Below, one piece after another: positions 8,701 through 54,452 of a DNA stretch of 54,843 nucleotides. The stretch covers positions 1-54,843 of the forward strand of contig MQRK01231607.1 of NCBI GenBank assembly GCA_001938485.1, read 5' to 3'. A program made the translations under genes and the position numbers. The DNA is from Girardia tigrina (lineage: Eukaryota). Every line of letters begins with the position of its first letter. Position 1 is the stretch's first letter. The notes below the pieces were generated by a model that was given only the letters and a program-made list of their open reading frames with translations, was not told the origin of the DNA and did no database searches.

Positions 8701-9529
8701 ATAAATATAAATATGGTTATTGTATTTTTTTCCGAATTAAAATTATAATTTTTTTGTAATAAAAAATTATGAAGTGAACTTATTAAAATTTTGTCACAAA
8801 GATTTTGTTGCGTATTTTATTAAATTTCAATTTTATTGAACATTTAAATTTACCTGTTTCTCAATTAAATTTCCTAATTCTATGCAATAGCATTTTTCAT
8901 TTCGTTTTCATAATAGTTTTAAAAATTACTTTGCATTTAATAAAATAATGTTTTGAAAATAGAATTTAAAATCGCAATTTCGTTTAATTTAACAACTTTT
9001 AAATTACCCCTTTTTTACATAAAAAATAAAATTATATTTTCATTATGAGGTGTTAGTTTTAAGTTTCGCCAAAATAGTTAATTATTTTTTTAGTTTTGAA
9101 AATTTAAAGGAAATAAATTAGAAAATTAAAATGCAGAGTAAAAATATGATAAAATGAGTACGTGTTTAAAATATGTTTACATTGATAGCAAGTAATATAT
9201 TTTATAAGTGGAATAAGTTTAAATAAAATTTAAAATAAATAATTAACGAATTAATATTTTTAGAAATAATTTTTTTAATAAAAGGGCTTATTATAAATTT
9301 AAATTAATTAGTTTTTATGATAAAGTTTCGTAAGAATGTAAAAGTATTTTACATTTTAAATTTTGTAAATTTTTTGCAAAAAATGTAAAATTATTTTTAA
9401 GGTTTAATTTTCGTGAATTTTCAAAATTTAATTTAAAAGAATTGTAAATTAATTTTGGGCAAAATTATTGAATTAATTTGTTTAAGTATGTGAATTGTTG
9501 ATATTAATAAATTTTTGTGGTGTTAAATT

Positions 9530-10051
9530 ATGACTTCAGAATGTGATAATAATGAAAGTGGCATAAACGCTACTTACATGGCGAACAACGCTGCTTTGGA
9601 CAACTTCACGAACCAATTACTACCTGAAAAGTTCACGAAAGGTGACAATGTGGAGACGTTCATAGAAGAATGTGAAACATTCTTTCAATTCGCGGGAGTG
9701 GCAAAAGTGAAACAGGACGTTATTGTCTTATGTCTTTTGGACAGAGACATAAAGGAAAAATATAAGACCGTTGACAAGTCGATAATTGGTTATAAAAATC
9801 GACTTCGAAAAGCATTTGGTAGGACATCTTCGCTATTTGAGGATTGGTCTGAAGCTTGCCGGTATAGGATGAATAAGGATATACCTGAAGTTTTTTTCGA
9901 AAAAATAGAAAAGATGGCAGAAAGAATTATACAACATAATATGTCAAAAGAAAGCATAATGGAAACATTATTAATGAACTGTTGTGATGATATGGATATC
10001 AAGAAAGAAGTTCGGATGAATAACGTAAAAGGAGTGGAACGCCTACCGTAA
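9530..10051 (+). mobile_element. gag: Truncated Ty3/Gypsy-type gag ORF (173 aa)
   Basis: LLPEKFTKGDNVETFIEECETFFQF...capsid-like helical pattern. Ends abruptly, with no zinc knuckle or pol downstream. Confidence 0.7.
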
Positions 10052-10535: not shown

Positions 10536-11269
10536 TGAAATTGCTTTTTAAAATTTAAAAAAAAAGATTATTATGTAAATTAAATGAAATAAATAATACT
10601 TTTATCAAAATTGGAAAATACAATGATAAAAATTATTAGTTATTTTTTTTATAAAAGAAATATTTTTCTAGATGGTAACATGTCTTAGTTACTTATGCAT
10701 ATGTATTTTCATTGTATATTTATTTATTTTATAAATTATTATTGTAAAAAATAGAACAATCAATATCATTTTTACACATTTTTTTATTCTTTTCATTATA
10801 TAATTATCTTTTTGAAGATTTCTTTTTTTTTAATAATTTTTTATTTGTCCTAAAATATTTGAATATTTTTTCAATAAAAATATTTATTGCGATCTTTATT
10901 TTGAATTGTTAAATTTCCAACTTTTAAAATTTAATTAACTTAAACTTCAATTCTTTCTCATTTATTGCCAATATATTCAAACTTCATTTCAATACGAATT
11001 TCTATTTTTTTAAACAAATTTTTGAGGAACATAATTTCCTATTCACAAAACTTTATAAATCGATATATTGTAAAATAAATATGTATACGTTAACATTTTA
11101 ATTTAAATTTTACAATCTCTTAAATTTTCAAATTTAAAACTTTTCAATTTTAGAGTTTTACCATTTGTAAAATTTTAAATATTTACAATTTTACAATTTT
11201 AAATTATGACGTTAAAAATGTTTGTGAATACAAATTCCTAACCGTAAGTAATTACAATTTAATCCTGGA

Positions 11270-11410
11270 TCTGCTGAAGGTTGCTCTACTAAATAAGACA
11301 TAGAAGGAAGACCAACGACTCCATGTGTCTCCTCACAATAATGCAAGGTCCCACCCGGCGAAAAAAACACATCGGCAAAGGATACTAAGGATTTCCAAGA
11401 CAGGAACGAA
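11270..11410 (+). mobile_element. mariner transposase fragment
   Basis: HNNARSHPAKKT, cf. LHDNARPHTAK. Confidence 0.5.
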
Positions 11411-11961
11411 TTTGCATGTTTTTTAATGTTCTGCTTTTGACTTATCGGTTGTGAAAATGTAAGAATGTTTCAGTGTAAATTTGGTTTTTGGTGGGCAATA
11501 TAGATAATTTTTTATTTTGTTACTTAATTAAATCATTTAAATATTATATCTAAAATCAAAAAAAATGTTTTTTTTATTGATTTTAAAACTTTATTAAAAC
11601 TTTTTATGAAGTTTTTATGCCGTTATTATGATAAAAAGTTTGTTATTAAATATCGAAAAAAAGAAAATAAAAATGACTTTCTCCGAAAAACGATCAAGTT
11701 TCCCAGTCTTTAGTCGACTCTTAAGTAAACTTTTTAAAAATAAATGACTATATTTTTTATTTGATAGGCCTTCTAAAATAAGCATTGCGCGCCGCATAAT
11801 TAATCATTCAAGCTCTCATTTCATTATTTAATAATGTTTTACAATTTTATGCACCATGAGCAATTATTAAAAGAATAATATTTATTAATATTTTTAACTG
11901 TTTTGATAGTAGGGAGTCCCAGACTCCATTGAGAGTTACCAAACCATAAGTTCTTTTAGCT

Positions 11962-12148
11962 TTTTGTTCAGCCCACCGCCCATGTTGTTCCGAATACCGG
12001 ACGGGGATAGCAGAGGTGCTCAGTAGGAATATGAGCTCAGACTCTTTCTGCTGGGCCCATTTTAATTTAAGATTGTTCAAACAGATTATTTTTGTTTTAA
12101 AATCAAAATCAAAGCAATGATAAAAAAGTTCAAAAATTTGAGCAATTA
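11962..12148 (-). ncRNA. Candidate U17/snR30 (SNORA73-like) box H/ACA snoRNA
   Basis: 5' hairpin ATTGCTCAAAT/GTTTGAACAAT, then box H AAATTA (12068-12063), then TGGGCC...GTCTGAGCTCATATTCCTA (m1 perfect). Upper stem CTGAGCACC/GGTATTCGG, m2-like AACAACAT, lower stem GCTCAT/ATGGGC, and ACA at 11967-11965. About 187 nt. Confidence 0.55.
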
Positions 12149-13399
12149 GAATTATTTAAAGCAAATAATCGTTTCTCCAAAATTACACAAAATAAACTTA
12201 AATCGTAAAATATAAAAAATCAAAATGCCTCTTTCCTCTTAAATCACAATCAATTAACCAAAGTTAGAAATCGTTTTGTATAAAATATGACAATCGATAT
12301 TCGTTTGTTTTTTGATAATTTACAAATGATCAAATCGTTAAATTACATTTGTTTCGCTAGTACAAGAGAAACATGAAAATCAGAAATAAAAATTAAAATT
12401 GAAATTAAATTTCACTTGTGCCATTAACTCGTTCTGATTGGATAGCCAATCAAAGCTTACGCCAAATTTATTTAACTTTTTTTTTAATTTTCCTTTTCCT
12501 TATTTAATTTAAATTTCTATTTTAATTATTTAATTATTTAACTTAAATCTCATATATCAAATATATAAGAGAAACAAAGTTATAAAAATCAGTAATTGTC
12601 ATTTGAATATCCCAATAAATAGCTCGATTTGAATTTGAGTTGGCATGAGAGGAATTCGATTGTCTTTTTCCAGGAGAGGTAATGGAAATCGACAATAGAT
12701 ATACAATAACAATACAATATAATAAATATTAAATTCGAATTTCGAACATTAAAAAAGTTGAAAAGTTCTTTTTAGATCAAAATACAGGTCATTAAATTTT
12801 CAAAGTTACAGAATGAAAAAAAATGTTTTCAAAAACTTCTTCATTAAAACATTGAATGTTCTTTATTAAGTATCATCTTGAATGACCTAAATAATATTTC
12901 CACTGCGACTTCTTTTAATACAAGCCATCTGTCAAATTGACCAGAAAAAGGATAAAGTTGTAAAGTGTTAAGTCTCAGATAACTTTCACAAATGTTTTTC
13001 TAAGATCTTTAAGCGACGAAACAATAATAAGCAAATTAAATCTTCACAATTTAGGAAGAGGCATATAACGAAGAATGAAAATATTTATTTAGAACTGATT
13101 TTAAAATTGATGTAATTTTATGGCTGCATTGTTAATTTGGTTTTCTGGTTTTTTTGTCATCATTATATTCAATATATCTGCATTTCAACATATAATTTTA
13201 TTCACGTTTTTTAATACAAATAAATATTTTTTTAAATATGTGATGTATAATGGAAAATGATTGATTGAAATAAAAAATGAATTACTATATGTTTTCAATA
13301 TAATTCATTACTTAAAGGATAAATTCTACTATTAAAAAATCGGCCATTTGTTCTTCATTGGATAACACAATCAAACTCGACTCAATTATGACAATATCT

Positions 13400-13947: not shown

Positions 13948-15330
13948 AAATTCAAAGTATGTTCAGCAATAAATCTATATTGCAAATTGATGATTATGCA
14001 AACATCTTGCGCAATAATTAATTAAATATTTTCAACAAAGTGGAAGAGAGACTTGTTTGGATATTAATGTACGGATTAAGTGATTTAATCAATAATGCTT
14101 CACAAGTTACTCTTTCCCAATAATTTTTAAAATTACTGCACAATATTTTAAAATTAGTTGCTTTCACCTCCGATCTACAACCCTTCATATGTACAGCAAT
14201 ATTACTCTCATTACCCAATCGTCCATGCTCCTGAATCCGTTTACAGAGATGACGAGACGTCTCTCAATTGTATCAAAAACGAAATTCAAAGTATGTTCAG
14301 CAATAAATCTCGTACTCCTTTGAGTTCATGTTCCAAACTGGTTTATCGATTTTGTGTAATGGGTAAAACGCCACATACATTGGAGAGACGTCTCGTCATC
14401 TCTGTAAACGGATTCAGGAGCATGGACGATTGGGTAATGGCAGTAATATTGCTGGACAAATGAAAGTTTGTAGATCGGAGGTGAAACAACTAATTTTAAA
14501 ATATTGTGCAGTAATTTTAAAAATAATTGGGAGAGAGTTACTTGTGAGACATTATTGATTAAATCACTTAATCCGTCCATTAATTTCTGTAAAGTAAACA
14601 ATCTCAAAAATTCATAATAATTGAAAGTGCTTTCTTTAACAAATATATTGACAATTCATAACTGTAACGGAAAGATGTACAAGAAAAGAAATTTTTCTCC
14701 ATCACAACAACCATAAACAGGTTGTCTCAGATCGTCTTGATTATTAACGTCTCCAATTAGATATCTGATTTTTTTTATTATTGACTGGTTTTAAATTGAA
14801 GGGATTGGTTGAGGAAAGACGGAATAGTTATAGTTTACAATAATTATTTAATTTTCGTCTTTGTTGGAAAAACGGGATTGTTTAATTATTATTTCTTGCC
14901 CGTTGTTGTTTTCAAACTTTCTTTTACTGATTGGAAATTGAGGGAATTGGCTAAGGAAATGATGAAGTGATGATAGTTTCTAGGAAACTTCTTATTCTTC
15001 TAATTCAAAATCCAAATTTGTCGATCAATATTTTTATTGATTTTTTTATTATTTAATATTAGATAATATTACCATCCAAATATTATATTATATATAATAT
15101 TATTATCCTAATTTATTTAAACAGAAAATAAAATAAAAATTTACATTTACAATGTCCAAACAAGTCTCTTCCACTTAGTTGAAAATAATTTTTTTAGTTA
15201 TTACACAAGATGTTTGCATAATCATCAATTTGCTATACATAAGACAGCGAAATTGTTGTTAATTCTGCCTGAAGATGGTGGAAAATCCACCGAAATATAT
15301 TGCGACAATAAAATTTTATTTTTTGAATGC
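13948..15330. mobile_element. Penelope-like element 3' end (GIY-YIG + pLTR) present as an inverted duplication
   Basis: GIY-YIG C-terminus (ETSRHLCKRIQEH...SNIAVHMKGC...FKIL...EALLIKSLNPYIN) on the minus strand at 13977-14273 and on the plus strand at 14375-14584 plus 15151-15236, followed by a hammerhead and AATAAA. Confidence 0.85.
15266..15304 (+). ncRNA. Minimal type I hammerhead ribozyme (Penelope pLTR)
   Basis: TGC-CTGAAGA-T-GGTGGA AAA TCCACC-GAAA-TATATT-GCG. Perfect 6-bp stem II, palindromic stem III, 3-bp stem I. Lies directly downstream of the GIY-YIG end. Confidence 0.85.
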
Positions 15331-25942: not shown

Positions 25943-26414
25943 CAGTGAAAGCCGCTTAATAGGACCAGTAAAAGTCGGTTAATGGGACCACTCATGAAAC
26001 TGTTTGACCCTTCAAACAACATGAAAGTCATGAAAAACGTGTTTTTAGCGTAGGTCATACACCCACCCCAATCAACATACACATACACACGTAACAAAGA
26101 AGCAGGTCTTGACTTAATTTGTACTTACTGCATTTGTTCTTATCTCTTTAGCTGCAGAGAGCACCTGCTACATTTGTAGCACACACACACAGGACACAGC
26201 AAGAGGAAGTGTCCTGCAAGCAAACGTACAGTTAGTGGCGGTAACCCCATACACTTATCATCCCAGGTACGCATGTGTGTGTGTCGCCTAACTCTACATC
26301 AATCTTGCTAGAGCACAATGGGGAGGGTTGCAGACTGGCTGCTGACGAGAGCTGCAGCAAGCTCACACCCTCTTATGAAATCGTCACCACCAACTTCTCT
26401 CTTGCTGGTAGGAC
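25943..26414 (+). mobile_element. pogo/Tigger-like element left end running into the gap
   Basis: TA|CAGTGAAAGCCGCTTAATAGGACCA followed by the subterminal repeat TTAATGGGACCA. GC content is much higher than the flanks. Confidence 0.5.
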
Positions 26415-38803: not shown

Positions 38804-40092
38804 TTAGGGTGAACCAAAAGTCTTTTCGTATTTTTTATTAAAAATTTTAACATAATTTTACAACAAATAAAAAACATTTAAGTTTCAAAGTAAAGTCCAT
38901 TTGAATCTATAGCTTGAACCCATCTATGGGCAAGTTGTGCGATCCCGCTGCGGTACCAATCCTTGTTCTTAGAAGCGAAGAACTGGTGACACCCGTTTTC
39001 GACCTCGGCCAGATTATTGAAACTGCGACCACGAAGAAAGTGTGTCATAGAGCGGAAAAAGTGATAATCGGATGGCGCAAGATCCGGACTATACGCTAAG
39101 TGTAGAAGAAGTTCAAAGGCGTCGAGATTTTTGATTTTTTCCTTTGTTTGTTTGGCGGTGTGCGGTTTTTCATTGTCCTGTTGTAGAAGAACTCGCTTTC
39201 GATTGATCAAAGCGAGTTATTTCTCGCTAAGTACGGTATACATTCGATCAAGTTGGGCGCAGTAAAGGTCAGCGTCGATGGTACGACGGTTTGGAACCAA
39301 CTCGAAGCGAATCACGCCTTCGAAATTCCACCAAACATACAAAAGTGCCTTCCTTGAGAAACGATCTCGTTTTACTACCGGTTTAGCAATTTGTCCGGCA
39401 TCCAACCATTGATTTTGTTGGTCTGGATTACTGAAGTAAACCCAATTTTAATCGCAAGTTCCAATTCGACGGATGGAACGGTCTTCGCATGGATTTTCAA
39501 GCAATTTTTGACAAGTTTCGAAACGCTTTTCGGCTTGAATTGGTGTCAATTCATGAGGTACTTCTCGACATCGTCTATTGACCTTGCCAAGAGCGTGAAG
39601 GTGTCATACAATGGATGTTTGAGGAATATCGAGTTCGACCGACAATCTACAAGTAATTATTGACGGATTGGTCTCGACGGCTTCACGAATTGTTCCGGAA
39701 TCTACGGTGATAGGTCGGCCTGAACGTGCATTGTCTCCGAGGTCAGTGTTGCCTTCGTTAAACCTTTTGAACCAATTTTGTGCAGTACAATTTGGGATCA
39801 CATTATCGCCTTCAACTTCGCAGATATCTTCTTTATGACCACAGTTGCATGGAAACCCTGTTTCCATTAATGTCGTAAAAGAACACGAATTTCAAAATTT
39901 TCCATGATTTTTCTAAAAGACCATAAAAATTATATTAACGATTAATTATAAGTTTTAATATATATTGTGATGGTGCAGTTCAAGAGCTTTAAAAACATAT
40001 AACACATATATTTAAAATATCTTTATTTGGTAATAAGAAACAATTGAACAAAAAGACGTGGAAAATACGAAAAGACTTTTGGTTCACCCTAA
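38804..40092 (-). mobile_element. Full-length mariner (1289 bp), perfect 31-bp TIRs, TA TSD
   Basis: TA|TTAGGGTGAACCAAAAGTCTTTTCGTATTTT ... AAAATACGAAAAGACTTTTGGTTCACCCTAA|TA. Confidence 0.97.
38878..39905 (-). pseudogene. mariner DD34D transposase pseudogene
   Basis: MENFEIRVLLRH*WKQG..., WFKRFNEG.TDL.D.ARSGRP, LYVWWNFEGV, QQDNEKPH and YSPDLAPSDYHFF. Contains stops and frameshifts. Confidence 0.95.
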
Positions 40093-40975: not shown

Positions 40976-43318
40976 TAGGGAGCGACGATGTATCGTTAAA
41001 CAATGCATCGGAAGAACAACAATAAAATAAAAAAACAGCTATATTCAAATCTAAAATTTTATTTGGTCATTGATACTTGCTATTGAACTACAATAATGGC
41101 AAAGAGGATTTACAAAAAAGAAAAAAAATTTCAAATTTATTTTTGGAAAATTGAATTAAACTATAAAAGGTACATCAATTATTTTCTTCATCAGTCTTAA
41201 GTTTTCTTTTATACAAACAAGTTTTTCAACTTTGGATACTGAAAAATTTGTTCTACTGTCACCACATATATTTCCAGCTGTGGAAAACACACGTTCAGAG
41301 TTGGAAGAAGTTACTGGAATCACCAATGTTCTCCTGGCGAAGCAAGTTTGGGATAAATAAGTGATTCCTTTTTCCAGTATATCCAATTATTGGCATTCGG
41401 TGTTGTTAAATATTTTTCTAATTCCGCCTTGATGTCCGCCATTAAGGAGGTCCTCCTTTTCGGGTTATCTACGACTTTTCAAAAAGTCTTGACCTGCAAA
41501 CTTTTGGAAGGTCTTCTTATGTATGCAGTTTTTTTGTATTTTTAGTGGCTGTTTTTGTGTCTGTGTTTATGTGTTTGTGTCTTGTTGCGTGTCATCAATG
41601 AGAGATTGTGATGTGTTGGGTGAGGAAGTGTTCTTAAGTACGGCCTTGTACATGTTGAACACAGCTTCCTGCATTAATATTTTGGTTATGTTGTATCTTT
41701 GCCCAATAACATGTAATGTCGATCCTTTGTAACGTGGATCCAACATGTTTGCATATGCGTATTCTAAAACCTGAGCTCCACAATCGGGAAACATGTCAAT
41801 CATTTCCAACAAGTAATGATCAACGACCACTTTCATCATAAGATTGGGTGGATCATGTGATATTGACTGCAACTCTTCCTTCAGATCAAAGAGTTTTGGA
41901 TTGACATTGACTATTGAGAATCTCGTTCTCTGGACTTGCAAGGTTGTAGAGTTCTTCAAATTTTTTTCAATAGTTCAATCATTGTCCTCAAGTGTTTAAT
42001 CTCCTCTTCATCTGGTAGTTTGTTGTCTAGATTTTGTGAAACATCTTTTTCTGCTACAATTTTGATGGCAGGCAGTAGCTCATTGATAGATTATAATTGA
42101 TGAAGCTCACAGTTCCATCTGGTTGAGCAACTTTGAACTATTTTGATAATTATGATATCTAGAATTTAAGATGCTTCGGTAATAATTAAATCCTTTAACT
42201 TCTGAAAATGATTGAAGAAGCCAACCAGTGATGTCATCTTATCACTTAAATCTCTCTACAACTCACATTTCGATGCAGCACTTTGCCCAATCAATTTTTT
42301 CTTATGATCATCACACCAGATGATCAACATCATTTATAACACAATGCTTAAATGATGTACGCACATTTGATCCCAAGTTTAAGTCTTTAGTGAACCTATC
42401 CAATCTTTATGCGATTTCTTCCGATTAATGTTTGCCAGCAAAGTGTTGAAAAGTAACCAAGAAACACTTCATTTGAAAATCTGAATCAATTTAGTGCTCA
42501 GGCATAGCAATGTATGCTGCGTTGGTGATTCTGTTGGTCCACAGATTAGACGTGAATGATATTCCATCAAAATGAGGTTTATCTTCATTTAATATTTTAT
42601 CAATTGTTGCCTTCATGGCACTGTAAACATTCGGAATTTTAGTACGCAAAATTTTCCTTGAAGAAATTGGAATATACTGTCCTTTAGTACATACTTTTAC
42701 AAAATTTTTAAAGTCATCGTTTTCAACTACATTAAAAGGCAACATGGTACTTGCTGTCCACTAAACTTCATTCTATTAGTCGTCATTTCTAGGCCATGGA
42801 CTTTTGGTGAATACCCGGTTTGTTGTTGTTGTTTCGTCCGAAATTTCGTCTTTTCTTGACCTCTTCCTGGCTTAGGTCATGACAATGGCTGCTCCTGATG
42901 GTCAAGAGCCAGAAGAGGGTCCAACTTTAAAGTCATTATCTGAGTCAGAGTTTGCATCTACAGTTTCAACTGTTGATCTTGCATTCACCCTGGCCTCCCT
43001 TGCTTCTTGTGTTTTAAAGCTGGTTTTGTGCTTTATCCTAAGATTGCCTCTTATCCATGTTATGCTTCCAGTAGACACCCTGTAATGCTCACCACACTCA
43101 ATGCAGCTACCCCTGTTTTCATTATTTATGGTGTAGTAATCCCAAATTAAGGAAACTTTTATCATCTGGAAGGGAAAAAATCAATTTAACTATTTCGTTA
43201 ATCGTTCATCACACATCTAACAATATATCTGTATATCAATCAATCAATTTAAAAGTTAAATAAATAAATCTATTTATACATTAATATATATCCATCTATG
43301 TACCTTTTCACCTAACTA
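40976..43318 (-). mobile_element. hAT (Ac/ZBED-type) transposon relic with BED finger
   Basis: IWDYY...CIEC...STGS (BED finger), LPFNVVENDDFK, SFTSNLWT, TRWN, MLDPRYK and IPVTSSNSERVFSTAG. 3' terminus TAGGGAGCGACGAT at 40976. Confidence 0.92.
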
Positions 43319-43320
43319 TA

Positions 43321-44600
43321 ACGGGTGCGCAGGCAAAATCTGGACAAATTTTAAACCACCATTGTGAAAAGACGAAATTAAATTTCCAGAAGCTGTTTAT
43401 ATTTTATTTAAGGGCAAGATGTAAGGAACAAAAAATGTTTACAGAATAATTGAAAGTGGTCCGTCTCCATACACAGCACGAAGGCGTTTTTTAATCCCTT
43501 TGAATTCCTTCCGCAAAGTTGACTGATCCATTGTTTTCAACAATTTCTTAATCCGTTACTGTATTTGAGGGATTGTTTGAGCCTCCCAAACTCCCTCATA
43601 CACTTTCGCCTTTAGAGCGCCCCAAAAGTTCTCAATGAGGCGGCAGTATGGGACGTTGGGAGGATTACACTCCTTGTCAACAAAGGGGATGTTGAGATGA
43701 TGGAGAAGATTGAGAGTGTTGTTGGCATAATGTGCAGAAGCCAGGTCCGGCCAGAAGAGAATTTTGTCATCTCGATGATATTTCTTGATAAAAATCATTA
43801 GACCTTGTCTGATACACTGCTCGTGATAGAAATCGGCATGTACACTGTTTGGCCGCTGCAAAAATGTAGGATCACTGATGTGGTCTGCAGAGACACAAAG
43901 CCAAACCATCAGCTGAACAGAGAAATTTCTTCCTGTTCTATATTTGACGTGTTCAGGAGCAGATTGAAGACTCGAAGTAAAGTAGTGATCATTTCCTGGT
44001 AGATAATCCCATTTCAACTTGAAGTAGCTCTCATCGTCCATGATGATTTTTTATCACTCAAACTTCGGAGTAATTTCCCTGCTCTCAGCTTTACTCGCTT
44101 TACTTGCTCCTCTGTGTACTGAGGAGCCTTCTTTCTCTTTCGGTATTTTAGATAATAATATTCTTTGATAATATTCCTAATCGTCGTGTCACAGACACCA
44201 TACTTGCTGGCTTCACGTCTGAGAGATACACCACGCTTTGTTTGAATCCATCTCCGAATACTTGCGCGCTATTGATTTGTTAACTTTTTATTGTGACCTC
44301 CACTTCCTGGCTTCATGTGCACATTTGAACTCTTGGAGAGGTTTGAGAGAAGCGTATAGATGGTAGACCGTGCACAACCTTCATTTACAAAGTGGTTTAC
44401 AGTGAAGGCTTTTCCTTTTAAAAAGTTCAGATGCCAAAAGTTGTGAACTCTCTCACGGAGCTGTTGCTCTGTCATGTCTTTTCTGAGAAAATGAATGCCG
44501 AGAGGATGACGAAATATTATGCAAGAAACCCCCTACCCAATGTGATTCATGCTGCAACTCTAAATTTTGCATTAGAATGAATCGAAATATTGGACTAAAG
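43321..44600 (-). mobile_element. TRT / ITmD37E (DD37E) Tc1-like transposon, pseudogenised
   Basis: MDDESYF, FWPDLASAHY and NPPNVPYCRLIENFW with 37 residues between D and E. N-terminal HTH at 44269-44475. One terminus at TA|ACGGGTGCGCAGG; the other is not recognisable. Confidence 0.9.
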
Positions 44601-48440: not shown

Positions 48441-51400
48441 ATCACCTTATGTTTTAGTTTTTTTGTGTTCCAAATGATTGGGATAATTGGTTGAATTGAA
48501 ATTAATTTTGTTTTAATATTATTTGACAAATAAATACATAGTTTATTTTATGTCAAAAAAACCAATAACGATTCCCACGAAATTACAGCCAATTCCAAGC
48601 AAAAGCCAAAAATGATGCTTAATACATTAAAATTTGTCAATCAATAATGATAATAATAATGAGGAATTAAAAATTCGGATTTAACTGTTATTACTGATTA
48701 TGATTGTGAGTATATATTTTTTTCTCATGTATTTTTTTGATTAAAAGTTATCCTTGTTATTATTGTTATTTATTTTTTGTATTCATTGGTTAAAAGTGAT
48801 TCTAACGGAAGAATTATCATTCCGTTATAACCACTTTTACTATATGTTTTACTTATAATTGCTTAGAAAACTTTTTATTTTAAATATTTCCTTATTTTAG
48901 AAATTCTTTATAAAAATTAATTATTTCAAAATTTTTAAGAGTGAACCTGTCCTTTACAGTATCCATGGAATTTAGAAACCTGTTTTTGAAGGCATTTTAC
49001 TTATTCAATTTTCTTCAAACTTGATACACTTACTCATTCTCGATGACAATAAATGATATTGTGAAAATTTGATAAAAAACTTTTTTTAAAAATAAGGAAA
49101 AACGGAACATTCGGAGTTCCAGAACAATATTAATTGAAAAAAAATTAGTTATAAATTATAAGTAGTTTATATTAATTTGTATTGTTTTTTTAATTATTTT
49201 TTTGAATAAAATTTTTGTTTTTTTTTGATTTGCTAGTTTAATATTACGTTTTTTCCTTTTGACTCATATTTAGAAAATTAAAACAGTTTTTTTAATATTG
49301 TAGACCTAAAAAGGAATAAGACTGTTAAAAAATGATAGTGAATTTACTGGACAGACATCATGAATAGCGCAATTTAGAGTTCATTTGTGAAAATATAAAA
49401 TAAAATATTTTTTAATATTTTAAATATCTTTCTTTAAATTGAGCTATTTGCGATGTGTTTTCAGTAAACCAAGACATCAGTCCCGACCTAATGTATTTAA
49501 ATAATGTTTTATTCATTTAATTTTTATTTATTAATGTTAAAGATAAATAAAAGATTAATTTGTCATTTGAAATATTTAATGATATGATTTTTCTAAATAT
49601 TTGATTTATTTATTCAATTAAAATAATATATTAATTAACATATTACTTTTTTCGTTCTTTAAGAAAAATTATCTAATATAAATTTATTATAAAGTTTTCT
49701 ATAGAAATAAAGTAAATCACAATTAAAAAAATATATTAATTTAATGAATCACATAAATTAGAAAGAAAGTTTTATAAATTAATAATTTTTCTATCCTAAA
49801 ATGTCTGTTTATTCCTAGACGACAATTTTGTACGGAAAATGAACATTTTATATGGTTAATAAATCCTTTTCGTTTTTTTTAATTCTTACTTAAATTTGTA
49901 CGAGGGTCACCAAATATTTTTTATGTCCAAGATTTATTTTAAAATAAAAAAAATTTAATTTATTCTAAGTAAATGAAATTAATTTCGATTTACAACTGAT
50001 TTATAGACTCGTCCTAGAATTTTAAGTTGGTTAATATTTTATGGACTTAATTAGAATATGGTTGGTTGCCCACAGTCACGGCTGCGAACGAACAGGAAAC
50101 TTTTATTAAAGTAGAAAATTTAATGAGCGGAGAAAGGCTTTCCCCCTGATATTCGACAATACTCTCCATTCCTAGTTAAAAATTAGCCCAATGGGTTTTT
50201 TAATGAAATATTTTGCCTTTCTTTTCAACGAAGAAATCCGAAATAAAAGACTGCCATAAATTACAATATACAATTTCAGACAAAATAGGATATTCTATGT
50301 TTCAGAAATACAAATATTAAATTATAAAGACTTAATTTATATTTTTTCAATTATAATTTATGTTCATAATATTGTAAGTATGAGTTCTCTCATAGGTTTT
50401 TCTATGTCACAGTAGTGTTATCCCCAAGTAGGATGTGTTTTGTTCTTATTCCCTTAGGAGAGAATTAAAATTGAAATGTAGAGAAGATTCGTAAGAATCG
50501 ATATAAAAAATTTTATATATACTTCAGAATTATGTCATCAAAGTAGGTATTGTTCGATAGGAAGGATAATTATAATATGTCACTAGTGTTCAAGAAAGGG
50601 TAAACGAGATTATAAAAAATTAGAAATAGTATTCCAAAAGCAACATTTGTTCCGTTTGAGCCCTCAGTTACCCTAAAGAACGCACGGTTATAGCGATAGA
50701 GTATCGATTTTGGATTTGAAATTTGGGGATGTTGTGTTCGTAATTTATCCATTTTATTGTGGAGAAAAAATGTTCACTCATCGAATGATAATTTTATTTT
50801 TATTATACATAAAATTAGTAATTCAAAATTCAAAAAAATAACAGTTCGATAATTTTTCATAAATAAATCAAAATTTGAAAAAAAATTTCAATTAATTAGC
50901 AACGATTGTTTAATAAAATTTCAAAATACTGTTAAAAAATTTCAATAATCAAATTAATGTTCGACAAAAAATGTCAAATAATTAACGTTTGACAACAAAT
51001 TTCAATCAAAGTTTCAACCAGAATTTCAATTATTAAATTTAAAAAAAAATTCAAATTGAATGCTCGACAAAATTAACGAAAAATTTAAATTGACATAAAG
51101 ACAAAAAATGTGATATAATTTCAAAATATGTCTGACCCAAGGCTCTCTCTGATTGGTTGACCAATCTGATCGAACATTTGATTCAATCACCGATTTGTGA
51201 CACATATACAAAGAAATCGGCGCACCAACTGACATGATAATACTCGACCATTTTCACTAATTCACTGAGTTACATGACTCATTAAAAATTAAATAATAAA
51301 TGAACCGAAATCATTTCAAATTCAATTTTATTATTATATTATTTATCGATCTTCTAGTACAGCTTCAGACATTGAAGATCGAAGATTATACACATTTTAG

Positions 51401-51794: not shown

Positions 51795-52380
51795 CTTATA
51801 TACTGTCGGTAATGATTTCAATTCGTCATCAATAAATCATTAAAAACCCTCAATAAAGTTGTCGAGAGTGCATTTTGAACGTTTATTTTAGGATCCAAAG
51901 ATCTTATATATGACGCTTCACATGTCACTTTCTCCCAATAATTCTTAAATAAAGTGTACAGAATTTTAAAGTTATGGATGTTTATGTTGCCTTTACAAGG
52001 CTAACTATGCCCAGCGATATTACTTCTAATTTCCTTACGATTGTGTTCCTGGATTCTCTTACAGAGATGACACAAAGTCTCCGCAATATATGGGGCATTA
52101 CATCCATAACATGCATATTGGTAAAGGAAATCCGAACACAATCCTAACGGTGTTGAAGATTTATTACTAAACATAATTTCAATTTTTTGGATACTGGAAA
52201 TTATTTTAAAATTTATTGTATCATCTACTGGTTTCAAAATATAATGTTTAAATGTTTTAAACTCTTCTGAATAAGGTAAGGTTAAAACATATCCAAGTTC
52301 TAAACTATTTTTATTAGTGTTACAAGATTGATCTTGATCTTGAACATCTATTAATCTGATGACGGTTAATCCTTTGAAAA
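51795..52380 (-). mobile_element. Penelope-like 3' fragment (GIY-YIG) with decayed hammerhead
   Basis: LTLPY...FSNKSSTPLGLCSDFLYQYACYGCNAPYIAETLCHLCKRIQEH. TTGATGA...TCATTACC-GACA at about 51797-51833 is a mutated hammerhead at the expected position. Confidence 0.8.
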
Positions 52381-54452
52381 TAAAACAAAAATTTTATTTG
52401 GCTTTCAAATTTTAATTATAAATTTAAATTATTGTTAATAAATTGTAAAATTTATTTTATATATAAAAATTTTTTTAGTTAATTCTATATATTTTTGCAA
52501 TGATTAGTTCTGAGATTAAATTATATAAAATAAAGAATTAAAATGAAATCGGAGAGCAAAAATATTGGGGAACGATTCGTGTTTCCAGAGCCAGACAATG
52601 GTTCGGTCGGGGATCTGTCAATAATCTGTCATAAATGCAGAGAATATTAGCAATTCAACATATTATTTAGATGGAAAAAGAGTTTAAGCTCCTAGATTTT
52701 CCATCATTTTCAACTGATCCAATTTTGAGTAATTTAAAATTAACGTGGATTTTTTATAAATGAGTTTGTAAATTAAATTTAATTGCAAAATATTTCCATC
52801 AAATAATTCTAGAAATTAAATAAAATTCTAACTCAAAAAAAAAGTATCATAAAAATTCAAATTTATATTTTTAATGTTTCATTAAATTGTTTTTTTATTA
52901 AATTTGTTGATCTAATTTCGAGACACTAAATTTTAATTGATGTTAAATGTATATAAATATTAATTAAATTACACGGAGTCTCATACAAAATGTATAAATT
53001 GAAATAAGTTTTTGTTGCAAAATATTAAATTAGTTATTTAATTATTTGCTGGTTAATGTTATATTTAGTTTTGAAATAAATTATAAAAATTCCAACTAAA
53101 AATGTTCGTTATAGCGATCATACACTGAACTATCTTGGTTGTAATTTATTGATGGCTGAAAGGAGGATCATATTTACAAAATTTCCTCAATCAGATCAAA
53201 AAGTGTTGATACAATATCGAAAATTAATTTCATTTATGGAAAAATATTTGCTAATTTATGGTACTATATTAAAGACATTTATAATATTTTTCTTGTTATC
53301 GTTATTTATATCGAAAAATATCCTTGTACCTATAAGACAATCTTCATTTGATTTTGGAATCACCTTTCATCGTTTATGACTTTGAACAACAATCGCTGAT
53401 CTCCAAATTGCTAATTTATTTGCTGCTTGATGATACAAATAATAATATTATAAAATGATTAATTAATGTAATTAAATAATTAAATAAAAAAAATAATCCA
53501 ATTTGAATAATAGTTGTAGTGATTATTATTTATTTAAAATGAACAAAGAGATTTATTTTATTATGACTCATCAAGAGTCGAAGTTATTTAAAATCGAGTA
53601 TGCGTTCTGAAAATGATTGCCGAGTTGGTCTCTATTGGAGGGACAGAGACAATAAATGGCTGATTGGTTAAACAATCAAAGCGAGTCTAATGTCAGAATT
53701 TTAAGATTTTTAAATCACGTTTAACTAAATCAATTCATGTTATTATTGTTTTATTTTTTCTCGATTGACATTTGTTTTTGTGAATGTTTCATGAGCGATT
53801 ATTTGAGTGCTGATCAATATAAAATTGTAAATGATCTTTTGAGTAAAATTTTCATGATTGTTTGCAAAAACGAAGTCGAATCTTGAGATTGATATTACAA
53901 TTGAATTTGAAAATTTTGTGAATGATTTTTTGTGATTTTGTTGTTAAATAAAATCGAATTTCGAGACTGTAACTGCTATTAAAATTGAAAAGTTTGCGAA
54001 TTGTTGCTAAAAGAAATTAAATCTCGAGATTATAATTGCTAGTGAAATTAAATGGATTGAATTTTAATTATTGTTGAAAATCTCGATTAACAAGCAATCA
54101 TCTATAATAAAATGAGTCCATCACAAAACGTCCGAGCTACAAATAACTCGCCACCGCGACTCTGCTGTCACTGTTCGGTCTGAGGGAAACCTGAAGATCG
54201 GATGGAAGACTTTTTATTATCGATTAATAAAAATATGGATTTCTATTTCATCTGTTTGGAATTTTCAAATTATTTAGATTTTAACATTATAATATTTTTT
54301 TAATAATTTGCGAAAAGAGAATTTATGATTAAATTATTAATTTACCAATTGAGGAAGAGGACTTTATTTGAATATATTTTAAATAACTGTGTCAGAAGCA
54401 TTTTAATTTGTAGTTTTAATAAAAATCTGGAAATAATAATTTTTATTAATGA

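Follow-up and report, generated by a model that had tools for sequence, protein, structure and literature searches.

Does a short GC-rich segment on the minus strand of an AT-rich stretch of DNA with decayed transposons derive from the U17/snR30 RNA, and if it does, is it a working gene or a decayed copy? Among the H/ACA RNAs of yeast U17/snR30 alone is essential, and its m2 motif and 7-nt spacing are reported as fixed (excerpts of PMC2664660 and PMC7601244). From opposite sides of its basal pocket, the motifs m1 and m2 form base pairs with rm1 and rm2 of expansion segment 6 (ES6) in the 18S rRNA; this pairing keeps the central domain open until cleavage is permitted by assembly (excerpts of PMC2664660 and PMC12095548). 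According to the extracts concerned, the m1/rm1 and m2/rm2 pairing has been shown through compensatory mutation (PMC2664660), rm1 and rm2 provide most of the binding energy (PMC9176245), and an essential element lies in the distal 3' hairpin, at 561-566/572-577 in yeast (PMC2664660). The window, that is the whole stretch of 54,843 nt analysed here, is AT-rich (about 26% GC, with 16-37% in 2-kb bins) and contains 1,082 N. A preliminary description had proposed in it a 187-nt diverged U17/snR30 homologue or pseudogene, with a 5' hairpin, an H box and a 3' hairpin that carries m1 and a variant m2.

All motifs named in that proposal (AAATTA, TGGGC, GTCTG, m1, AACAACAT and ACA) are present on the minus strand in the order given. 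The H-box-like ANANNA word AAATTA (12068-12063) stands 3 nt ahead of TGGGC, as in human SNORA73B; ANANNA words cover 5.2% of minus-strand positions and are therefore common by chance, which makes this word weak evidence when taken alone. The equivalent of the internal hairpin (12059-12038) has the arms TGGGC(C), with TGGGC at 12059-12055, and GTCTG at 12042-12038. The 5' strand of the basal stem P1 follows at 12037-12033, and then m1, ATATTCCTA, at 12032-12024; it conforms to the consensus AUAUUCCU(A/G/U) and matches exactly the commonest form, found in 11 of the 14 rows of Table 1 in the part of PMC7601244 at hand. The upper stem P2 with its 16-nt loop extends over 12023-11990 (strands 12023-12015/11998-11990) and is weak, having 8 of 9 pairs with one C-A mismatch and several G-U pairs. 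On the m2 side we find the segment AACAACAT (11989-11982), in which the variant m2 ACAACAU (11988-11982) is identical to AAACCAU at five of seven positions. The spacer and the 3' strand of P1 consist of two tandem 7-mers (11982-11976 and 11975-11969), and a 2-nt purine tail leads to the ACA box (11967-11965), 14 nt beyond m2. Both departures that had been claimed, in m2 and in the distance to ACA, are thus real, and the basal GCTCAT/ATGGGC stem was confirmed with 6 bp including one G-U pair. The six bases 11967-11962 fit ANANNA as well, so that this ACA could serve as an H box.

The domain 12059-11965 (95 nt, minus strand) has 56% GC, and the content falls sharply to 20% or less immediately 5' of 12059; the 80 nt preceding the H-like word have 20%, and the sequence past 11898 has 18%. 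The 5' hairpin of the proposal would have to form in the AT-rich stretch 12148-12069 (minus strand). Its core (12134-12075) reaches -6.7 kcal/mol at z -1.19, with 20% GC like the background, and the hairpin is unsupported; nothing confirmed the boundary at 12148, and the 187-nt candidate as a whole has no folding signal (z -0.54). The domain is single-copy in the window. About 370 nt upstream, on the strand of the domain, there is an inverted pair of CCAAT words (12436-12450), and after it come a run rich in pyrimidines and, at 12346, a donor-like site; a non-coding host gene could have its promoter here. By BLAST, 12400-12720 has no other copy in the window; a second CCAAT inverted pair stands at 51151-51165. 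Roughly 500 nt downstream on the minus strand there is another, unexplained island of raised GC content (11230-11470), which is single-copy, matches nothing in Pfam or Rfam and gives no folding signal (z +0.28 and -0.42).

How much of this arrangement would be expected by chance? The m1 motif alone is at chance level, with two occurrences against 0.99 expected per window (31 of 100 shuffles reach two), and for the surrounding 11-mer the result is borderline (3 of 100 shuffles). We therefore turn to the whole arrangement, using a descriptor anchored on m1 and built from published features: a 7-mer resembling m2 that closes on the two bases with which m1 begins, two stems, one basal and one upper, and ACA at a distance of 5-15 nt. 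Its thresholds were fixed at the observed values (m2 5/7, basal stem 4 bp, upper stem 8/9). Only one of 60,000 shuffles of the local flanks passes the full descriptor, and eight of 60,000 do so when the ACA condition is dropped. Two sets of block shuffles of the whole window gave 0 of 1,500 each, or three and five without the ACA condition. Among the three real m1-type sites in the window only 12032-12024 passes; those at 44171 (plus strand) and 17781 (minus strand) have neither stem nor m2. The pattern of ordered words shared with human SNORA73B (given below), whose words were picked post hoc, was reproduced by none of 100 shuffles and by none of 3,000 block shuffles. The U17-like arrangement as a whole is not at chance level.

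The Rfam models for SNORA73/snR30, whose silence had been named as one of three conditions that would refute the homology, gave no match: there was none at the gathering score, none at E values up to 10 on 901 or 121 bases around the locus, and none at E up to 5 on the window, the sensitivity of these models for invertebrate U17 being uncalibrated. One ciliate U17 was recognised through manual analysis of m1 and m2 (excerpt of PMC3177221), which suggests that a missing Rfam match is not fatal.

The predicted minimum of the 98-nt domain (-28.5 kcal/mol) is a three-way junction in which m1 occupies a 9-nt apical loop and the variant m2 a second loop, with pair probabilities of 0.91-0.95 for two stems. 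A three-way fold had already been offered as an alternative, and as the minimum-energy fold it is real; its drawing was wrong. In the corrected form GCTCA/TGAGC stacks on AGCAGA/TCTGCT and is not a separate arm, the basal stem takes the second TGGGC, and the second arm is formed by 12004-11998 with 11982-11976. The U17-type folds are less stable: -14.0 kcal/mol for the one first drawn, -18.3 for the second register explained below, and -23.6 for a four-way fold. An internal loop with m1 and m2 on opposite strands at its basal side can thus be drawn, and is rare in shuffles, at 4.9 kcal/mol above the minimum (6.7 with one 7-mer removed), a difference that is uncalibrated without a genuine U17 as control. 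For the stems of the U17 type the long fold gives pair probabilities close to zero. Predictions of this kind can be overridden when proteins assemble on an RNA as it is transcribed.

Could the likeness be fortuitous after all, so that the locus is an unrelated GC-rich element, another three-way non-coding RNA exposing m1 in its apical loop, or an unrecognised transposon fragment? The silence of the SNORA73/snR30 models, even on 121 bases, speaks for this, as do the well-paired minimum fold and the fact that one m1 per window is expected anyway; moreover, thresholds and flanking words were picked after the locus had been seen, and the window was itself chosen from a genome-wide scan. However, the three-way fold is no better than that of shuffled sequences (z -0.46), there is no second copy in the window, and the geometry, the words ahead of m1 and the repeat with period 7 are each rare and, as evidence, for the most part distinct from one another. 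We consider a fortuitous likeness unlikely. Because the descriptor is so seldom passed by shuffles, and the ordered words and the H-box spacing are common to human SNORA73B, the domain probably descends from U17/snR30; this and the other confidences in this paper are judgements and were not computed. The earlier suggestion of a diverged homologue or pseudogene is upheld as far as descent is concerned, through the descriptor tests and a likeness to SNORA73B seen by eye, while the covariance-model match it called for did not appear.

A protein-coding origin was considered as well. Open frames at 12155-11847 (minus) and 11950-12120 (plus) cross the GC island, the interval 12176-12052 is without AG, and YAG and donor-like sites are present, so that a short exon (e.g. 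12050-11940 on the minus strand, CAG to GTAACT) or a decayed plus-strand fragment of a retrotransposon pol gene could be imagined. But neither frame has a Pfam match (best E 0.24) or a match among PDB sequences (best E 1.2). For the minus frame there was also no word-indexed match to longer proteins and no ESM Atlas hit (recognition 1246), and for the plus frame a full HMMER scan returned 0 hits. We regard a coding sequence as very improbable.

The setting of the domain is one of decayed mobile elements, and the host would be a eukaryote rich in repeats. In the 150 of 217 ORFs (at least 50 aa) that were scanned, the only Pfam matches above cut-off are pieces of mariner and hAT transposases. 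Broken mariner, hAT and Tc1-like transposase genes lie at 38878-39891, 41156-43180 and 43556-44532, the last having relatives at 38-70% identity. The nearest long ORF (9527-10051, plus strand, 174 aa) is Ty3/gypsy-type gag-like by language-model features (score 0.94) and has one 95%-identical relative (P0001). Two fragments without Pfam match (13978-14655 and 51830-52393) look, by their motifs, like ends of GIY-YIG (Penelope-type) retroelements; the former includes an inverted pair (14060-14273/14375-14587) of 214 bp at 92.5% identity. A GC-rich region with CA/GT repeats (26118-26414) adjoins a 1-kb N gap; its composition sets it apart from the remainder of the window, and it may be foreign or have been joined wrongly. 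The window yielded no host gene, no tRNA or tmRNA, no significant Rfam family and no rDNA. A plasmid or phage origin was rejected, as the matches were just chance ones of 22-24 bases (E 0.5-0.6). HDV-like and hammerhead ribozymes, RNase P/MRP, telomerase RNA and SRP RNA were rejected too: by eye, none of them has its parts in the right order, and Rfam reports none of them.

The preliminary description missed that a 7-nt unit, duplicated in tandem, makes up the 14-nt spacing. The 14 nt starting at the last base of m2 are two 7-mers identical at six of seven positions, equalled at a fixed place by 237 of 200,000 draws. When one 7-mer is left out, the stem has 7 bp, the tail 2 nt, and m2 lies 7 nt from ACA, which is the canonical spacing; the spacer would accordingly have arisen by duplication of such a unit. 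The 5' strand of the basal stem pairs with either copy. With the first (4 bp) the pocket is of normal size but 14 nt remain to ACA; with the second (5 bp) stem, tail and ACA are canonical, which is seen in 11 of 60,000 shuffles, but the variant m2 sits seven bases too far up. No register offers the canonical pocket and the canonical spacing together. The seven bases at the canonical m2 position of the second register (11981-11975) match m2 at two of seven positions and pair poorly (median -1.2 kcal/mol), and as a compensated motif they fit none of the 32 18S stretches described below. The simplest course for a functional RNA would be to pair with the second 7-mer and loop out the first.

This brings in the reading in which the locus is a variant U17 still at work, and which we hold to be possible, though distinctly on the doubtful side. 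The second 7-mer would then form the basal stem by ACA, the first would be looped out as a tether, and m1 would be placed as in yeast. In an alternative form of this reading, based on the four-way fold, the second 7-mer pairs with the TGGGCC arm and the pocket stands 14 nt above ACA. Part of the case for a working variant is the canonical stem, tail and ACA of the second register, together with the high GC content that was kept and the -23.6 kcal/mol of the four-way U17-type fold. Against it stand the lack of any register that is canonical in both respects, the dominance of the competing three-way fold and the unsupported 5' hairpin.

The m2 of a working variant would have to find a partner in ES6. 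In order to compare it with real 18S sequences, a contig collection was scanned for two conserved words flanking rm2, which gave at least 52 loci (about 240 estimated). Of these, 41 were kept and 11 filtered out, nine of the latter looking like chance matches and two (L019, L050) like true 18S; all six loci tested are eukaryotic SSU rRNA by Rfam. These eukaryotic 18S fragments are contaminant contigs in many species-representative prokaryotic assemblies, the 41 of 52 being counted among the matches listed. The set was reduced to 32 distinct ES6 stretches from eukaryotes other than the host; since the m1 pairing was built into the search pattern, it is no evidence here. The usual rm2 sequence in ES6 is UUGUUGGUUU, and among the matches listed canonical rm2 is present in 27 of the 32 stretches, UGGUUU being absent from the other five. 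In three of the loci (L030, L033, L011) GGCCU or GGUCU replace GGUUU at rm2; m2 probably varies in these lineages too, which tempers the claim of invariance.

None of the 32 stretches has an exact complement of the variant m2 at rm2, so that in these sequences pairing in the canonical register is not available. However, 29 of them carry UGUUG three bases upstream of rm2, which pairs with the variant m2 over 5 bp, and the isolated duplexes are of nearly the same strength (medians over the 32 stretches of -5.1 kcal/mol for the variant and -5.2 for canonical m2). Of the 135 double substitutions of m2, no more than 6 retain five contiguous pairs with ES6. In a working variant m2 would thus read UGUUG and displace the weak base of an ES6 helix, or the lineage would have its own rm2, a proposal as doubtful as that of the looped-out spacer to which it belongs. 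That rm2 can vary, as in the five stretches without UGGUUU, agrees with it, and in Trypanosoma a change of m1 is known to be compensated (excerpt of PMC2664660). On the other side, the shifted register must open 3 bp at the ES6 helix base in 29 of 32 stretches at a median cost of 2.1 kcal/mol, and this opening changes the three-way junction that is seen by cryo-EM (PMC12095548). A 2-nt deletion would explain the m2 variant with less surprise. The compensating 18S change that had been suggested as a possibility is, in these 18S sequences from other species, neither evident (0 of 32 for the exact complement) nor required, given the shifted 5 bp. As for other 18S contacts, the best conserved 8 bases (12018-12011) recur in 33 of 41 fragments, about what chance would give by a rough estimate, and a 9-base AT-rich contact occurs in 20 of 41. 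An exact reverse complement of canonical m2 stands 35 nt past the variant m2 (11947-11941, minus strand); it may be due to chance, and no role was found for it.

A further possible hairpin with a second ACA, also missed before, lies downstream on the minus strand. It extends over 11943-11896, with a lower stem of 7 bp (11943-11937/11908-11902) and an upper one of 6 bp (11927-11922/11918-11913), and it follows an A-rich stretch and has the ACA at 11901-11899; its assignment is uncertain. One could imagine that the H/ACA RNA is rearranged and longer, with about 165 nt (12059-11896), the m1/m2 hairpin being its 5' hairpin, ACAAAA the H box, the A-rich part the hinge and 11943-11902 the 3' hairpin. 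The raised-GC island spans just this interval (56%, 29% and 42% against 18-23% outside), a hairpin-plus-ACA descriptor is passed by 2 of 4,000 shuffles and 6 of 1,486 real tiles, and the AT-rich 5' hairpin would become unnecessary. However, this descriptor was tuned to the observation and with looser stems is passed by 112 of 1,500, the hairpin has z +0.23 with pair probabilities of 0.06 or less in the long fold, and its pocket lies 11 nt from ACA, not 14-16, with a target in none of the 41 partial 18S fragments. Papers on U17/snR30, moreover, place m1 and m2 in the 3' hairpin. We hold such an RNA to be improbable; just as well, a retrocopy could have taken the segment 11943-11899 with it from downstream of its source, in the way of the mammalian snoRNA retroposons covered by the excerpt of PMC1687206. 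A partial self-duplication of the m1 segment into 11926-11890 was dismissed as not significant (952 of 3,000 shuffles).

Taking these observations together, we tentatively prefer to see the locus as a decayed or impaired copy of U17, although we would put this at somewhat less than an even chance and only slightly ahead of a working variant. The GC-rich 95-nt domain would descend from a U17/snR30 gene whose product works as U17 does, with a dyskerin/Cbf5 complex on the basal stem and ACA. In the copy the 7-nt spacer would have been duplicated in tandem and m2 altered at two positions, and it would now be impaired or silent, a duplicate or 5'-truncated retrocopy among decayed transposons, while the canonical U17 would sit elsewhere in the genome. 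Impairment is favoured because m2 departs from AAACCAU, the form given by every one of the 14 rows in Table 1 of PMC7601244 (whose text, in the part at hand, permits compensated variation), and because the spacing departs from the 7 nt between the m1/m2 element and ACA, which the excerpt of PMC2664660 calls invariant. That the U17 fold lies above the minimum, that there is no folding signal and that an ES6 helix has to be opened points in the same direction. A decayed copy in particular is suggested by the GC step 5' of 12059, by the transposon surroundings and by the existence in mammals of U17 duplicates and retrocopies, some truncated or with downstream sequence (excerpt of PMC1687206).

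Several observations oppose decay. With the second 7-mer in use, m1, the 5-bp basal stem, the tail of two purines and ACA are all preserved and placed canonically, the domain shows no visible drift to AT, and the variant m2 belongs to the few double substitutions that preserve contiguous ES6 pairing. The repeats flanking the domain, of which the longest have 5 and 7 bases, are A/T-rich and give no convincing target-site duplication; there is no poly(A) tail, and the CCAAT pair and the donor-like site are upstream on the right strand. In yeast a spacing longer by 1 nt was harmless, one shorter by 1 nt mildly harmful, and one shorter by 2 nt nearly abolished 18S (excerpt of PMC2664660). If the locus works at all, it works like U17. 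That it is in fact the working U17 of its lineage, with the doubled spacer looped out, ES6 read in a register shifted by three, the helix base invaded and the recognition hairpin maybe placed 5' in a longer RNA, seems to us rather unlikely.

New in either case is the 14-nt spacing made of two near-identical 7-mers. In a working RNA two features would be broken that are said not to vary between yeast and humans, and the locus would be a probe of how the position of m2 controls release of the 18S central domain; the doubled spacer and the shifted register would amount to a different and directly testable grip on ES6, in a lineage whose U17 is invisible to Rfam. As a decayed copy the locus would be a minor finding, yet one that points to the parent gene.

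Among known systems, the guides of pseudouridylation have in common with our locus a hairpin followed by ACA; the m1 motif is specific for U17, and no guide-type pocket with its top 14-16 nt from H/ACA and a matching target was found with the 41 partial 18S fragments. In the literature, with limited coverage of subscription papers, no U17 with an ACAACAU m2 or a 14-nt spacing was found. The snR30 of Trypanosoma brucei likewise has one recognition motif off consensus; there, according to the excerpt of PMC2664660, m1 is changed, 18S rm1 compensates and m2 is invariant, whereas here m2 and the spacing are changed and compensation is not evident. Compared with the snoRNA retroposons of PMC1687206, as far as its excerpt describes them, the locus has no poly(A) tail, just short A runs after either ACA, and no parent gene in the window; in line with such an origin, its surroundings hold pieces of transposons and its GC content changes sharply at the 5' edge. 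In human SNORA73B the order is H box, three bases, TGGGCC, loop, GTCTG, basal strand and CATATTCCTAC (excerpt of PMC10538263). By eye, the locus has the same words TGGGCC and GTCTG in the same order and the same 3-nt gap after the H box, with 12 nt in the loop instead of 5; its TGGGCC 5' arm prefers other partners in predicted folds. From U17/snR30 in general (human SNORA73A/B, yeast snR30, C. elegans CeN96, Oxytricha Onc90) it differs in the m2, the duplicated 7-mer before ACA, the weak upper stem, the unsupported 5' domain, a U17 fold that is not the predicted minimum, and the missing Rfam match. Because m2 agrees at only five of seven positions and the spacing is 14 nt, we do not place the locus as a member of U17/snR30 and call it U17-derived. 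With these RNAs it shares the same exact m1, an m2-like motif that faces m1 across a basal pocket with identical two closing pairs and, in the second register, the 5-bp basal stem, the 2-nt purine tail and ACA.
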